In this document: in pieces, positions 1 through 23,910 of the stretch
Layout of the letters: the number at the start of each line of letters is the position of its first letter
Position numbering within the stretch: the first letter of the stretch is position 1
Source: an uncultured Thermomicrobiales bacterium
Lineage (GTDB): Bacteria > Chloroflexota > Chloroflexia > Thermomicrobiales > CADCWN01
DNA: 63,090 nt
Assembly (NCBI GenBank): GCA_902806415.1
Contig: CADCWN010000022.1
Span: forward strand, 1 to 63,090
Direction of reading: 5' to 3'
Notes under the pieces: model-generated
Databases searched by the model: none
Told to the model about the DNA's origin: nothing
The model's input: the letters and a program-made list of their open reading frames with translations, nothing else
Made by a program: the position numbers and the translations under genes

Positions 1-236
1 GGTGAGGCGGCGGCGCTGGCGATGGCCGGGGGCTGATTGGCGGGGAAGAAGCCCGGCGTGGCCGGTCCGCCGGCGATGGCGTACACCGTCGCGGTCGCGG
101 CGAGTGCGCTCGCGCGTGCCGCGATCGTCGGTGCGGGCGGCGTCGCCGTCCCCACGCGCCCACAGGCCGCCAGGAGCAGGACTACCAGCACGGCGCACCA
201 GGTCAGGATTCGCCGCCGACTTGCTCGGATGTCCAT
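1..236 (-). CDS. Lipoprotein, N-terminal part (runs off the window start)
   Basis: Manual translation: MDIRASRRRILTWCAVLVVLLLAACGRVGTATPP..., with lipobox LAAC; GGGGGAGG SD upstream of the ATG at 236. Not in the ORF track. Confidence 0.75.
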   Translation of the reverse strand, partial: MDIRASRRRILTWCAVLVVLLLAACGRVGTATPPAPTIAARASALAATATVYAIAGGPATPGFFPANQPPAIASAAAS

Positions 237-291
237 CGACCTCCCCCGCAATCACCGCGTTGTCCCTCGCGTAGCCCGCCAGCCGCTTTGT

Positions 292-307
292 TGCAATCAG
301 TGTGCCA
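292..307 (-). promoter_or_regulatory. Sigma-54 -24/-12 promoter
   Basis: TGGCACACTGATTGCA (TGGCAC-N5-TTGCA), about 55 nt upstream of the lipoprotein ATG. Confidence 0.8.
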
Positions 308-330
308 GTGGGCGCGGCGGTACGACGGGC

Positions 331-366
331 AAAAAAAGCGGGCGGCCTTTGGGGGGAGGCCGCCCG
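331..366 (-). terminator. Rho-independent terminator
   Basis: 10-bp GC stem followed by a T7 tract on the minus strand. Confidence 0.85.
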
Positions 367-405
367 TGGATCGTGATGCGGGGGCATCACGGAGATGGGG
401 TTAAG
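331..405 (-). ncRNA. Candidate small RNA with two C-rich-loop hairpins
   Basis: CGUGAUGC-CCCC-GCAUCACG and CGGGCGGCCU-CCCCCCAA-AGGCCGCCCG followed by U7; ECF-like promoter directly upstream; no plausible ORF. Confidence 0.6.
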
Positions 406-410
406 AGAGA

Positions 411-436
411 GACGATGGCCGGGCGAGAAAAGTTCC
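411..436 (-). promoter_or_regulatory. ECF-sigma-type promoter
   Basis: GGAAC-N17-CGTC on the minus strand. Confidence 0.6.
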
Positions 437-437
437 C

Positions 438-571
438 TGGCGAGTGGGCGAGTGGGCCAGTGGGCCAGTGGGCCAGTGACGAGTACGGCGAGCAATTAAG
501 TGATGGGCGGGCGCTGGTATATAGTCCAGCGCCCGGCCCTGTTTCTCCGCCCACTGGCCCACTGGCCCACT
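438..571. repeat. Inverted array of 8-mer tandem repeats (AGTGGGCC)n ... (GCCCACTG)n
   Basis: About 5 units at 438-480 and about 3 complementary units at 548-571, with an internal GC hairpin near 504-539. Confidence 0.85.
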
Positions 572-3500
572 AATCTACTTGTTGCCGATTCATGCGCCGG
601 CGGCGGCTGTTGCGATCGGGGCTATTCAGGCTCGCTTCGCGCAGCGGGGCCTCGTAGCGCCACTCGTAATAGTGCTGACCCACATTGCCCAACTCGATCT
701 GCCAACCCTCGGGGTTGTGCGGACTGTAGGTCAGGGTCCAGCGCTCGAAGACCTGGACGAGGATCATCCGGTCGATCCCATCAATGGTCACCTCGACCCA
801 GAACGGGTCGGTCAGCGGGTGGCCGGGGTCGAGCCCCGCCGTGTTCCCCTGCAACTGAGCGTAGAGGGTGTGCTGCGGATTGTCGTCCGGGCTGGTCATG
901 AACGTTTGCAGATACCATCGGGCGAAGACATCGGCGACGTTGTGGCCGGAAACCTCGTCGTAGCCGGTCAGCGTGACGAGCGCAGGCGGCTGTGTCCCCT
1001 CGGCGAACGGCTCGATCTTGCCGCCGGGCCGCAGGAGCCAGTTGATCGGTGCGCCCGCGTAGTTTTCGGTCCGCTTCGCGGCCTCGACGGTGGCGTCGGC
1101 GTAGGTCGGCGCGAGTTTGTCCGGCGCGGGCTGGCCGAGCGTGAGCGCCGCGAGGTTGCGGTCGGTCTCCTTGGCCGGGCCGACGAGCGGGATCTTGGCC
1201 GGGCCGACCTCGGTGCTGGCGTTGTCGCCGAGGTCGATCTTGCCGGTCAGCATCTCCCAGGCCAGCATGCCGACGCTGGTGAGGAAGCCGCCCTTGCCAT
1301 CGGCCACCCGCTCCATCCGGCCCTTATCCCAATACTGCGCGACCCGGACAGCGTTCTTGTCCTTGCCGTAGCTTTCCAGGGTTGACCCGGCGAACGGCTG
1401 CGGCCCCCAGAGCCAGGACTGGCGCTGGTTGGTATAGACCTGGCGGTCGGTCGTGTTCCAGGAGGTGTCGAACGCCGCCTTGTTCGCCGGGTCGTTGTGA
1501 CTGACGAGGGCGAGCCCGTTCTTCAGGAATTGCCCTTCCAGCGGCTCGGGACGAATCGAGAGCCAGCCATTGTCCTCCCAGATCGCGAGGCCGAAGTGGA
1601 GGTGCGCGCCGGTGGAGGTGGAGCCGGTATTGCCGACGAAGCCGATCGTCGTGCCGTGCGAGACGACCTGATTGACCTTGATCCCGGCGCTGACGCGCGG
1701 GTCGTCCTTGAGGTGGAGGTAGTGACTCCGCAGCAGCGTCCCCTGCGGCGAGCGATGGTAGAGTTCCACCGTCCAGCCGCCGCCAGCGGTGGCGTAGACG
1801 TTATTGATCAGGCCATCGGCCACCGCCAGGACCGGCGAGCCCTCGCCGTTCTCGCCGCGCGGCCACACGCCCTTGTTGAAGTCCACGTCATAGTGCATCC
1901 CCGCGCCATCGTTGTGGAAACCCTCACCGTAGAAGGAGCCGTCGCCGCCCGCGTACCAGGTCTCGCCCGCCCGGAAGGGGAGGTAGAGCGGGATCGAGGA
2001 GAGGGCGTCCAGATGGCGACCGGTGATCGCGGGTTGCAGAGGGTTCTCCGGTGCAACGGTGAAGATCGGCTGCCCGCCGCCGCCGGGGGAGAGATTGAAG
2101 TTCGGGTCGGTGATGAGGCCGCCCGCGTAGCTGGCCGCCCAGGAGAGGATGAGATTGACGTACCAGTCGGCGTTGTTGTAGGAGAAGAGCGCGCGGCGCA
2201 TGTCGCCCGGGGCACCGCTGGCCTGCAAGTAGAAGGCGGCGGCGTAGATCGACGATTCCGCATCCCAAATCCCCGCCATCCCGAGACCCTTGCTGGTGAT
2301 CGCGTCGATCTGCGCGGCATAGGGCCGGTAGCTGGAAGGGAGGAACTGCATCATGCCGAGCGCGTGCTGATCCTCGGTCCCGGCGAACTGCGCCAGATAC
2401 GGTCCGACCGCGCGCGGATCGAAGCCCGACTCGACCTTGGCGATCGCCAATAGGATCTCCTTCGGCACACCGGATCGCGCGGCGGCCTTCTCGAAGGTCG
2501 GCATCAACTGCGCTGGCGCGACCGCCGGGCCTGCGGGCGGCATCGGCACGCCGGGATTATTGGCCGGTGTGCCGCCGCCGCTGCTCGCGGCTGTTTCCGC
2601 GAGCGGCCGCCGGGCACCGGCGTAATGCTGCTGGTAGTAGGCCTCGCCCAGGCTGCTGATGACCGTCCCCGAGCCGATCGCCGAGGCGTGGATGAAGCGA
2701 CCCCCCCCGAGGGCGATCCCGGCGTGGCTGATCCCCGGCGCGTAGGTATCCTTGAAGAAGACCAGATCGCCCGGTTTGATGTTCGCCGGTTGCACGTTGA
2801 CGCCGACGCCCGCCTGGTCCCCGGCGACGCGAGGGAGCGTCACCCCGGCGGCCTTCTGGAAGATCCAGAGGACGAAGCCGGAGCAGTCCCAACCGACCGG
2901 CGACTGTGCTCCCCAAACATAGGGGACACCGAGGTGCTTCTGCGCCTCGGTCACGACCGCGGTGCGCCAATCGCCGCTGGCTGGCAGGACGCCGCCATCA
3001 CCCGGCATTTCGAGCGGGCCGGCGGGGATCTGCGGATCGAAGAGCGGCGAAGGGCTGGGCGAAGGACTCGGTGACGGGCTGGGAGACGGGCTCGGTGACG
3101 GGCTCGCCGAGGGGCTGGGCGACGGGGAAGTCGTGGCCTGCGGAGTCGCGGCGCGCGGCGTGCCGCGACCGCCCGGATTGACGATCGCGCCGCCGTTGGC
3201 CGGGATCGCCGTCGGCGATGGACTGGCCGCGACGGTTGGTGCCGCCTGGGTTGGGGCAGCCGCTGGCGCGGGGGTGGGCGTCGGCTGCGGTGCCGCCGAC
3301 TGCTGCGGTACGGCCGACTGCTGCGGCGCGGCCGAGGGTTTGGGCGTGGTTGAGGGGGCGATTTTAGGTGCCGTGGAGGGTACGCTCTTTGGTGCGGTCG
3401 AAGGGGCGGTCGAAGGGGCGGTCGAAGGGGCGCCCGGTTTGACCGTCGCCGTGGCGACAGTCTGCGCGCCGATGGTCGGCGTTCCCGCCACGCGCGTGGG

Positions 3501-3644
3501 GAGCGCGTTCGGATTATTGGTTGTCAACGGACTGCCGGGATCGTCGTCCGGTGCCGCACTCGCGCTCTGGAGCCCCGGCATGAGCGGGCTGAGCAGTGTC
3601 ACCAGCAGCGCGATCGCCACGAAGAATCGCGAGAGCGTCATCAT
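570..3644 (-). CDS. Secreted multi-domain peptidoglycan hydrolase (NlpC/P60 + SLT transglycosylase + M23 peptidase + C-terminal surface module)
   Basis: Signal peptide; Pro/Ser/Thr linker; PYVWG...DCSG...H (NlpC/P60); AIAKVES...GMMQF...YN (SLT); H...D, HYLHL, TGAHLHF (M23). Confidence 0.9.
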   Translation of the reverse strand: MMTLSRFFVAIALLVTLLSPLMPGLQSASAAPDDDPGSPLTTNNPNALPTRVAGTPTIGAQTVATATVKPGAPSTAPSTAPSTAPKSVPSTAPKIAPSTTPKPSAAPQQSAVPQQSAAPQPTPTPAPAAAPTQAAPTVAASPSPTAIPANGGAIVNPGGRGTPRAATPQATTSPSPSPSASPSPSPSPSPSPSPSPSPSPLFDPQIPAGPLEMPGDGGVLPASGDWRTAVVTEAQKHLGVPYVWGAQSPVGWDCSGFVLWIFQKAAGVTLPRVAGDQAGVGVNVQPANIKPGDLVFFKDTYAPGISHAGIALGGGRFIHASAIGSGTVISSLGEAYYQQHYAGARRPLAETAASSGGGTPANNPGVPMPPAGPAVAPAQLMPTFEKAAARSGVPKEILLAIAKVESGFDPRAVGPYLAQFAGTEDQHALGMMQFLPSSYRPYAAQIDAITSKGLGMAGIWDAESSIYAAAFYLQASGAPGDMRRALFSYNNADWYVNLILSWAASYAGGLITDPNFNLSPGGGGQPIFTVAPENPLQPAITGRHLDALSSIPLYLPFRAGETWYAGGDGSFYGEGFHNDGAGMHYDVDFNKGVWPRGENGEGSPVLAVADGLINNVYATAGGGWTVELYHRSPQGTLLRSHYLHLKDDPRVSAGIKVNQVVSHGTTIGFVGNTGSTSTGAHLHFGLAIWEDNGWLSIRPEPLEGQFLKNGLALVSHNDPANKAAFDTSWNTTDRQVYTNQRQSWLWGPQPFAGSTLESYGKDKNAVRVAQYWDKGRMERVADGKGGFLTSVGMLAWEMLTGKIDLGDNASTEVGPAKIPLVGPAKETDRNLAALTLGQPAPDKLAPTYADATVEAAKRTENYAGAPINWLLRPGGKIEPFAEGTQPPALVTLTGYDEVSGHNVADVFARWYLQTFMTSPDDNPQHTLYAQLQGNTAGLDPGHPLTDPFWVEVTIDGIDRMILVQVFERWTLTYSPHNPEGWQIELGNVGQHYYEWRYEAPLREASLNSPDRNSRRRRMNRQQVD

Positions 3645-4053
3645 CGGTCATTCCCTCGACTGCACAAACTACCAATATCCGCCCGCCCGGAGCTGATCTT
3701 TGTGTGCTGCCACTGCTGATCGCAGTGTACCAGCTATTCGTACTCCCAGTCATTCCCGCCGCCATCGCCGTACGCGATGGGCCATTTCTCGGCGGTGTAC
3801 TGGGGTCAGGGACCTCACTATACGGCATAATCGGGCCGTTCTTGCGTACCGTAGTACCAATTATCCAGAGGGGTCAGGGGGGGAAGGAGATTTGCTCCCA
3901 GTACGCGGGTCTACATTCTAGGACCGCAGTCCCGGTTTCTTGGCCCGAGGAGGGGTGGCAAGGTGAGTACGGATCGCGACAGGAGTCCCGACGGCCTGCT
4001 TGCCAAGGCGCGAGGGTAATCTAAGGGCGGCGCATTCGTGGAGGAGGAAACCG

Positions 4054-19110: not shown

Positions 19111-20538
19111 ATGAGTATGCGGATGGATGCCGGCATGGACATGTCCGCCGAGATGCGGGCGTGGGTGTCGCCGAGCTTGATCGAGGCGAACTATATCCTC
19201 AGCCTATCGCGGCAGGAGTTGCAAGAGGTCATCCGGGAAGAGATGCTGGCGAACCCGGCGCTGGAGATGGACGACAAGGAGATTTGCCCGCTCTGCGGCG
19301 GCGTTGTGGAAGGGCCGTTCTGCCCGGTCTGCCTCACCAATCAGCAGCTCGAACGGCAAGAGGCGAGCTATGAGGATAATCCCGAGATCATGACGCAGCA
19401 GTCGCCGAACGGGATCGCGGAGGATGATTTCGACCCCCTCACGCTGATCGCCTCGGAGACCAACTTGCCCGATCAGATCCTCTCCGACGTGCGCACCCTC
19501 CTCGACGACAACGAAATCCCGATCGCCGAATACCTGATCGAGAGCCTTGACGACCGCGGCTACCTGACGATCTCGCTGGCGGCGGTGGCGAAAGTCTTTG
19601 GCGAGGCCGAGGAGATGGTCGAGGAGATCCTGGTCCTGATCCAGCAGATCGCCCCGGTGGGGGTGGCGGCGCGCGACATGCGCGAGTGCCTGCTCCTCCA
19701 ACTCGACTATCTGGTTCGCAACAACGCCGAAGTGCCGGTCGCGGTCCAGCAGATCGTCGAGGGCCACCTGGAGGATCTCGGCTCGCACAAGTACGGGTAT
19801 ATCGCCGGGGCGCTGGGGATCGCGACCGAGGAGGTCGAGGCAGCGCGCGACTTCATCCGCAGCCAACTCAGCCCATTCCCGCTCCAGAGCCAGGAGGCGC
19901 GCTCCTGGAAGAGCCCGAACAGCGCGCCATACGTCGCCCCGGACGTGGTGATCTCGCTGCACGAGGGCGAGTTCCTGGTCGAGGTGGTCGAGGCGCGGCA
20001 TTTCTTCCTGCGGATGAGTTCGCTCTACGAGCAGATCGCCGTGTCGCTGTCGCAGAAGGGATCGCAGCCGAACGTCAGCGACTCGGATAAGAAGCACGTC
20101 CGCGACTTCACCTCGCGGGCCAAGGTCTTCATCGCCAATATCCAGCAGCGGCGGGAGACATTGCGGAAGATCGCGCTCTGCCTCGTCGATCTGCAAGAAG
20201 ATTTCCTGCGCGGCGGCGTGCGCGAATTGCGCCCGCTTACCCGCGCGATCGTCGCCCAGCAGGTCGGCGTCCACGAATCGACCGTCAGCCGCGCCACGGC
20301 GAATAAGTACGTGATGCTGCCGACGCGCAAGGTGATCCCGTTCAGCGACTTCTTCACCCCGTCGCTCTCGATCAAGGATGTGATCCGCGAGATGGTCGTC
20401 AAGGAGCGCGCGAAGGGCCAGCCGCTGACCGACCGCGAGATCTGCAGCCGCCTCTTGCAGCAGGGGATCCGCATCGCTCGTCGCACCGTGGCGAAGTACC
20501 GCGCGGAACTCGGTATCCTGCCATCGACGATGCGCTGA
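19111..20538 (+). CDS. rpoN: RNA polymerase sigma-54 factor
   Basis: NPALE, SLDDRGYL, HESTVSRA (HTH) and ARRTVAKYR (RpoN box). Confidence 0.95.
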   Translation: MSMRMDAGMDMSAEMRAWVSPSLIEANYILSLSRQELQEVIREEMLANPALEMDDKEICPLCGGVVEGPFCPVCLTNQQLERQEASYEDNPEIMTQQSPNGIAEDDFDPLTLIASETNLPDQILSDVRTLLDDNEIPIAEYLIESLDDRGYLTISLAAVAKVFGEAEEMVEEILVLIQQIAPVGVAARDMRECLLLQLDYLVRNNAEVPVAVQQIVEGHLEDLGSHKYGYIAGALGIATEEVEAARDFIRSQLSPFPLQSQEARSWKSPNSAPYVAPDVVISLHEGEFLVEVVEARHFFLRMSSLYEQIAVSLSQKGSQPNVSDSDKKHVRDFTSRAKVFIANIQQRRETLRKIALCLVDLQEDFLRGGVRELRPLTRAIVAQQVGVHESTVSRATANKYVMLPTRKVIPFSDFFTPSLSIKDVIREMVVKERAKGQPLTDREICSRLLQQGIRIARRTVAKYRAELGILPSTMR

Positions 20539-23897: not shown

Positions 23898-23910
23898 CTC
23901 GGAGGGGGCA

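Follow-up and report, generated by a model that had tools for sequence, protein, structure and literature searches.

A candidate small-RNA gene with an ECF-type promoter and C-rich unpaired segments in one family of Thermomicrobiales

The closest analogues of the element described here are the C-rich small RNAs of the 6C and RsaE types. RsaE and RoxS of the Firmicutes, in which C-rich unpaired motifs pair with G-rich Shine-Dalgarno regions, are similar to the element in size and in their two-hairpin-plus-terminator layout, and they answer to a two-component system or a redox regulator instead of an ECF sigma factor; the element differs from them in having no Rfam match and in belonging to another lineage. 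The 6C RNA (B11) of Actinobacteria is Rfam family RF01066. Its C-rich loops are described as binding G-rich ribosome-binding sites without the help of Hfq or ProQ (PMC6486639). Like 6C, the element would be a small RNA presenting C-rich loops on stem-loops in a host of high G+C content, and no Hfq was found in that host, although the two lie in different phyla and no covariance-model match connects them. Moreover, loop 1 of the element holds four C residues, its second C-rich loop doubles as the loop of the terminator, and an invariant C-rich 5' tail comes in addition to the features of 6C; the promoter of the element is of the ECF type.

Small RNAs from ECF-type promoters have their own precedent. 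MicA, RybB, and MicL are sigma-E-dependent small RNAs of Enterobacteria, and MicL has a promoter of its own close to the 3' end of another gene, a position that resembles that of the element behind a hydrolase gene. The E. coli sigma-E regulon is described as including small RNAs that down-regulate outer membrane proteins (PMC6767563). The likeness here would lie in small RNAs that are made from ECF-type promoters and form the repressing arm of an envelope-stress regulon; these RNAs, however, are Hfq-dependent, use A/U-rich or mixed seeds, and have no sequence or Rfam relation to the element. The original prediction had also likened the element to the cuckoo RNAs, and ar14 and mmgR do share C-rich loops and a terminal hairpin with it. 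These are the only small-RNA families whose models give even faint scores, namely 15 bits (E-value 1.4) against a gathering score of 58.8 for ar14 (RF02344) and 12.5 bits (E-value 6.4) against 41 for mmgR (RF00519), so the likeness does not extend to membership; in addition, ar14 is a multi-copy family whereas the element is single-copy in its genome. No Rfam 15 family matches the element at gathering thresholds, and 6C and RsaE are absent from the 10 matches obtained for positions 200-600 at E-values up to 10. Judged by its sequence, the element is a putative new family of a known kind, specific to one Thermomicrobiales (Chloroflexota) family. A full-text literature search of limited scope found no small RNA of Thermomicrobiales, and within the limits of that search trans-acting regulatory RNAs appear to be undescribed in this order and scarce in Chloroflexota.

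Anatomy of the unit and its promoter

The window, by which we mean the whole 63,090-nt stretch of DNA that was analysed, is contig C22 of a metagenome-assembled genome (G000; 5.16 Mb in 425 contigs, 92.6% complete, 68.6% G+C). Along its minus strand a hydrolase gene is followed by an inverted repeat, the promoter boxes, a C-rich tail, two hairpins, a U7 tract, a sigma-54-type box, and a lipoprotein-like gene (Table 1). Promoter-like boxes, a C-rich tail, a hairpin with a CCCC loop, a terminator with a C-rich loop, and a U7 tract had all been proposed for this strand, and each is present at its proposed place, as are the G-rich ribosome-binding sites that the same proposal cited.

Table 1. Positions of the element and of related features in the window
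Feature	Position	Strand	Remarks
-35 box GGGAAC, ECF-type	432-437	minus	invariant in 14/14 distinct copies
T tract TTTT, adjoining the -35 box	428-431	minus	T4-T6 in 14/14 copies; one copy with an extra C before the tract
-10 box CGTC	411-414	minus	invariant; always 17 nt from GGGAAC; T next in most copies
Predicted transcription start	403-405	minus	inferred; invariant sequence from T403, 7-8 nt past the -10 box
5' tail AACCCCAUCUCC, 12 nt, C-rich, candidate seed	391-402	minus	unpaired in MFE and centroid folds; invariant 14/14
Hairpin 1, 8 bp (CGUGAUGC/GCAUCACG)	372-391	minus	loop CCCC at 383-380; single-sequence and alignment folds
Terminator hairpin, 10 bp (9 G-C)	339-366	minus	loop CCCCCCAA at 356-349; fold and terminator scan
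U7 tract, RNA 3' end	331-337	minus	weaker in relatives: 3 to 7 U
Peptidoglycan hydrolase gene	573-3644, end at 570	minus	1024 aa, secreted; NlpC/P60, SLT, and M23 domains
Downstream lipoprotein-like gene	ATG at 236	minus	RBS GGGGGAGG at 247-240; continues beyond contig edge
RBS GGAGGGGG	8902-8895	minus	
RBS GGAGGGGG	23901-23908	plus	

All 14 distinct copies of the element combine AAC in the -35 box, CGTC as the -10 box, a spacer of 17 nt (about 16-17 nt being usual for ECF promoters), and the T tract. The distance from CGTC to the invariant AACCCC is 8-9 nt in each of these copies, and the 13 spacer bases that follow the T tract are only 47% alike among them. Fixed boxes at a fixed distance around a free spacer are the signature of a bipartite site read by a protein and do not point to an RNA helix. 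For ECF promoters, AAC at -35 is described as the hallmark, accompanied by a group-specific -10 box, and a T tract close to the -35 box is described for the promoters of a subset of ECF groups (PMC5758882); 'CGTC' is given as typical of many ECF promoters (PMC3426412). The minimal motif GGAAC-N17-CGTC occurs 77 times in the 5.16-Mb genome, for which base composition leads one to expect about 65 occurrences, and taken on one sequence alone it is not beyond chance. The genome has a single instance of the extended motif GGGAACTTTT-N13-CGTC. Four near matches to it were seen, before two genes for ABC-transporter binding proteins, before a permease gene, and in contig C82; the last of these, which sits behind a convergent membrane-protein gene and is not conserved in relatives, was taken as a chance occurrence. 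No sigma-70-like promoter was found in positions 1-4000 of the window.

The proposal of an ECF-driven promoter stands as far as the boxes, the N17 spacing, and the T tract are concerned, all of which are kept in every copy, but no ECF gene could be tied to it. Above the Pfam cut-off, 26 Sigma70_r4_2 matches were counted in the genome, and the promoter motif was found upstream of none of these 26 genes, so that no cognate sigma factor was identified in G000. In two relatives the extended motif GGGAACTTTT-N13-CGTC lies at the 3' end of an ECF sigma gene, in its last codons (peptide RELFARY.RRYD; positions 1501-1527 of locus L050 in G004 and of L052 in G005), immediately followed in both by an open reading frame for an anti-sigma factor with a zinc-type H-x3-C-x2-C motif. 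The orthologue of this sigma gene in G000, on contig C285 and 66% identical, is without the motif. Apart from the element itself, this is the only place where the motif recurs in conserved form. The intragenic site may drive the anti-sigma gene as an internal, sigma-dependent promoter, or it may reflect no more than coding conservation; since it is coding sequence and absent from the G000 orthologue, we set it aside as evidence for the cognate sigma factor and keep it as a lead only. The extended-motif site of another genome, G006, lies on contig C667 upstream of a TatA-like gene that has sigma-70-like boxes of its own.

An 86-nt stretch folds with a free energy of -35.4 kcal/mol (z = -7.38), and none of 200 dinucleotide shuffles folds as well. 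The MFE structure makes up 74% of the ensemble, no alternative anti-terminator fold appears for the unit, and RNAalifold, applied to the alignment, recovers both hairpins of the single-sequence fold. None of the 8 pairs of hairpin 1 varies, so covariation speaks neither for nor against this stem. In the terminator stem of the relatives one pair appears as U-A, C-G, or U-G and one G-C pair becomes G-U; a compensatory change is seen in only 1 of the 18 pairs of both hairpins. Because covariation is almost absent, the structure rests on thermodynamics. The second stem, of 10 bp with nine G-C pairs and followed by CUUUUUUU, has the form of an intrinsic terminator. A simple terminator scan returned 2 sites in 4 kb against 2.0 expected from shuffled sequences, and by such a scan of one sequence alone the terminator is not beyond chance. 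Canonical intrinsic terminators are rare in G000, with only 30 strict examples (a perfect stem of at least 7 bp and T5 or more) in the 5.16 Mb. A CCCC loop is present in two of these 30, and C-rich loops are not typical of terminators in G000. The case above chance is made by the uniqueness of the extended motif, the scarcity of strict terminators, and the conservation of the whole unit in relatives. Two small open reading frames in the unit were considered and rejected: the frame on the same strand is broken by 1-nt indels between copies, and in relatives the variable base that precedes TAACCCC removes the stop codon of a 12-codon frame on the opposite strand.

Distribution and conservation

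BLAST searches with positions 236-575 as the query found the element in five of six other genomes of the same family, across four genera, and in none of 34 genomes that represent four further families of the order. All matches are confined to about 437-328, from the -35 box to the U tract. A scan of 185,579 species genomes for the exact pattern gave five Thermomicrobiales or Chloroflexia assemblies and one unrelated chance match, and the corresponding scan of metagenomes placed the element on 11 contigs. Neither BLAST nor the covariance model R1 found the element in G002, which belongs to the same genus and is 96% complete; the hydrolase has no close orthologue there, the best match being 38% identical. 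G000 itself holds no second copy, a 116-nt query returning one full match and fragments with E-values above 0.01.

The original prediction had proposed a check by covariance model. Model R1 gives 97-102 bits for its matches within the family and no more than 37.6 bits for every other match, the genomes scanned being 151 from the order and 151 from the class. All 13 of the weak matches that were inspected, one of them from an unpublished genome (G075) that supports no claim made here, were rejected as generic GC-rich terminators without the tail, hairpin 1, or GGGAAC-N17-CGTC.

Within the element, the 14 distinct copies share 35 consecutive nucleotides, from T403 to C369, without a single difference. 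Both the C-rich tail and the CCCC loop are identical in all of these copies, as is the core CCCCCAA of the terminator loop. The flanks are alike at the random level only (31% over 70 nt upstream and 28% over 70 nt downstream of the unit). For the adjacent hydrolase gene, compared over its last 600 nt at 10 loci, mean identity is 74%, identity at third codon positions is 61%, and the longest invariant run is 8 nt. The unit is discrete, as had been proposed, in that conservation runs from the -35 box to the U tract between unrelated flanks. The original prediction had made itself dependent on the conservation of loops and promoter in relatives, and the boxes, their spacing, and the C-rich cores are kept in 14 of 14 copies; its claim for the C-rich loops holds for the CCCC loop, the tail, and the CCCCCAA core, but the CCUCC part of loop 2 varies.

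Other very C-rich stretches with CCCCC-loop terminators occur at G006:C224:16937-16997 (L076), G000:C69:4500-4557 (L078), and G052:C1:654848-654916 (L060), all of them without the promoter and without hairpin 1. One such stretch in G006, at 37.6 bits, has a stem nearly identical to that of the sRNA terminator. These stretches may be unrelated 3' ends or further C-rich RNAs.

Proposed mode of action

The unit is probably a real small-RNA gene. For the fuller statement, that it is a self-contained gene (437-331, minus strand) for an sRNA of ~73 nt that has an ECF-type promoter and acts by pairing in trans with G-rich ribosome-binding sites, our confidence is more modest, the balance tipping slightly in its favour. 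In the mechanism that we infer, an inducing signal, putatively a stress as in the original prediction, would act through an ECF-type sigma factor that reads GGGAAC, the T tract, the N17 spacing, and CGTC, and transcription would start near position 403 and end at the intrinsic terminator (366-331). The RNA would then expose three unpaired C-rich segments, namely the tail AACCCCAUCUCC, the CCCC loop, and CCCCCAA in the terminator loop, which would pair in trans with G-rich ribosome-binding stretches of target mRNAs, without Hfq, and thereby lower their translation. This mode of pairing is proposed because it is the mechanism demonstrated for the actinobacterial 6C RNA.

G-rich start regions are common in G000: of 3132 start regions called by a crude procedure, 1134 contain GGGG and 436 contain GGGGG. 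Hfq was not found in this genome, which is 92.6% complete. Given these two observations and the analogy with 6C, pairing in trans with G-rich start regions is a reasonable reading to favour. Searches of the genome for complements of the 5' tail show no enrichment of 10-mers (39, being 43 minus 4 at the element's own locus, versus 32 for reversed controls), and the start regions that pair with the 5' seed at -18 kcal/mol or better number 20, versus 26 +/- 24 for 40 shuffled seeds. The start region of the hydrolase pairs no better than background and does not come out as a predicted target. Near start codons, seed complements had seemed enriched (42/198 versus 3/162 in controls), but this signal was rejected as an artefact of in-frame Glu-Met-Gly codons together with the ATG inside the motif. 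On the claim that the loops are complementary to the genome's own Shine-Dalgarno sequences, G-rich start regions are common, but the 5' seed pairs with start regions no better than shuffled seeds do. The 3' end of 16S rRNA, which would hold the organism's own anti-Shine-Dalgarno sequence, was not found in the G000 assembly. That the RNA acts by anti-Shine-Dalgarno pairing, as the analogy with the described C-rich RNAs would have it, is a tentative reading to which we assign somewhat less than an even chance.

In a more far-reaching version the RNA would be a stress-triggered global brake on translation, its three C-rich segments mimicking the anti-Shine-Dalgarno end of 16S rRNA. The ECF sigma factor would then induce one RNA that covers the large class of mRNAs with runs of four to five G residues at the ribosome-binding site, again with Hfq unneeded, and the total invariance of 35 nt, including both arms of the stem, would reflect many simultaneous pairing partners. 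We consider this version improbable; if true, it would give Chloroflexota their first case of an ECF regulon with a post-transcriptional arm, and the RNA would be a counterpart of 6C that arose by convergence.

For the trans-pairing sRNA in general, the candidate brings unusually clean comparative evidence in the form of its own promoter, its own terminator, and a 35-nt invariant core, and it would link an ECF sigma factor to post-transcriptional control through C-rich seeds, which is a directly testable hypothesis. If confirmed, it would extend the chaperone-free mechanism of sRNAs with C-rich loops beyond Actinobacteria and Firmicutes. The reach of such a finding is limited to one family known only from metagenome-assembled genomes, and nothing in it is mechanistically unprecedented.

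Genomic context and alternative explanations

Genes of four kinds lie upstream of the element. The same NlpC/P60-SLT-M23 hydrolase, on the same strand, is found there in four of the six carrier genomes (G000, G001, G003, and G005) and on most of the metagenome contigs, and among 21 other locus records, 13 have a match to the window's hydrolase reading frame on the upstream side of the element. A SelA-like aminotransferase takes this place in G006, a GNAT acetyltransferase in G004, and an O-methyltransferase in L035, and behind all three of these genes the element is intact, promoter boxes included. The downstream gene encodes an alpha/beta-hydrolase with a lipoprotein-type signal in six locus records and a MoCF-like protein in others, and is convergent in G003 (DHDPS family) and in G005 (RNase T family). 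Because the flanking genes vary in this way, the unit stands alone, in agreement with its description as a standalone gene. A perfect match to a sigma-54-type promoter, TGGCAC-N5-TTGCA, is present at 307-292 (minus strand) of the window and also in L010, L038, L039, L042, L044, and L045. Such boxes follow the sRNA terminator by 25-40 nt and precede the ATG of the alpha/beta-hydrolase lipoprotein gene by about 55 nt; before same-strand downstream genes they are found in strict form in 7 of 16 locus records and in loose form in three more. The window includes rpoN, the gene for sigma-54, at 20095-20535 on the plus strand.

These arrangements bear on two readings in which the unit belongs to a neighbouring gene. 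Were it the 3' end module or terminator of the hydrolase gene, with any small RNA being derived from hydrolase mRNA, one could understand why the hydrolase precedes it on the same strand at so many loci (4/6 carrier genomes, 13/21 other records) and why G002 lacks both the element and a close hydrolase orthologue. The element may also have originated as the 3' end of this gene, or may be shared with it in that role. Conservation, however, sets in at the -35 box instead of the stop codon, which makes a plain hydrolase terminator unlikely; the 130-230 nt from the stop codon to the -35 box are unconserved and hold an unrelated repeat hairpin in the window. Moreover, the element persists behind the three other genes, and the G006 hydrolase (55% identical) is encoded on another contig, away from the element, so that even the broader form of this reading strikes us as quite doubtful. 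The unit might instead be a 5' leader that acts in cis on the downstream gene as an attenuator or riboswitch, and the terminator loop is indeed complementary to the ribosome-binding site of the next gene, which is on the same strand, over 11 nt at 91% (352-362 versus 237-247). We nevertheless discount a leader, and scarcely credit it with any likelihood, because the downstream gene varies in family and is on the opposite strand in G003 and G005. In addition, same-strand downstream genes have the sigma-54-type promoter of their own past the terminator (strict in 7/16 records), the single dominant fold leaves no anti-terminator alternative, and no Rfam cis-regulatory family matches.

The remaining two alternatives turn on the invariance of hairpin 1. 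At the DNA level, the palindrome GTGATGC-N4-GCATCAC could be an operator and the boxes a binding site for control of the neighbouring genes, with no functional RNA being made. The palindrome is perfect and both of its arms are invariant, as would be expected where a dimeric protein binds DNA, but it occurs once in G000, only four other sites come within one mismatch, and these share no common context. Neighbouring genes also differ between genomes, and the strong terminator that follows directly, with its compensatory stem changes, fits an RNA and not an operator; we regard this explanation as very improbable. A reading that is still unlikely, though less so than the other three, accepts the RNA as real and lets it bind a protein or act without pairing to mRNA, hairpin and tail forming a recognition site that might, for example, sequester an RNA-binding regulator. 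Both arms of hairpin 1 and 35 nt in all are fixed in 14/14 copies while adjacent third codon positions are 61% alike, a plain pairing seed needs only its unpaired letters to be fixed, and the searches for pairing partners found no target enrichment. On the other hand, the analysis turned up no protein that might be the partner, 6C RNA is documented to pair through C-rich unpaired runs, and low diversity within one family can also explain invariant stems.

The favoured reading, a small RNA that pairs in trans, was also set beside the available metatranscriptome contigs. Those from the four best of six RNA runs cover positions 1-269 and 554-1485 of the window and leave 270-432 uncovered except for repeat matches; the depth at 433-486 is owed to further copies of the octamer repeat. 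Libraries of this type usually lose RNAs that are short and structured, and repeats cause breaks in the assemblies. These contigs, which cannot show absence, are neither for nor against a transcript.

The hydrolase upstream of the element in the window carries its three peptidoglycan-cleaving domains behind long linkers rich in Pro, Ser, and Ala. Its C-terminal 300 residues form a domain with many paralogues in Thermomicrobiales, with 9-15 matches per genome in G008, G040, and G052. The octamer repeats between this gene and the promoter form tandem arrays of (CCCACTGG)n and its complement at 439-478 and 549-571, giving a 23-bp perfect inverted repeat (549-571 / 451-473) that flanks a 75-nt core and whose arm at 549-571 overlaps the hydrolase stop codon. 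G000 holds 34 octamer arrays in total, among them five inverted pairs 45-77 nt apart with unrelated cores, and BLAST shows the arrays to be dispersed in both G000 and G001. Analogous arrays built of other short units stand beside the sRNA gene in G003 and in L040. The octamer arrays may represent a REP-like class of elements or stabilisers of mRNA 3' ends.
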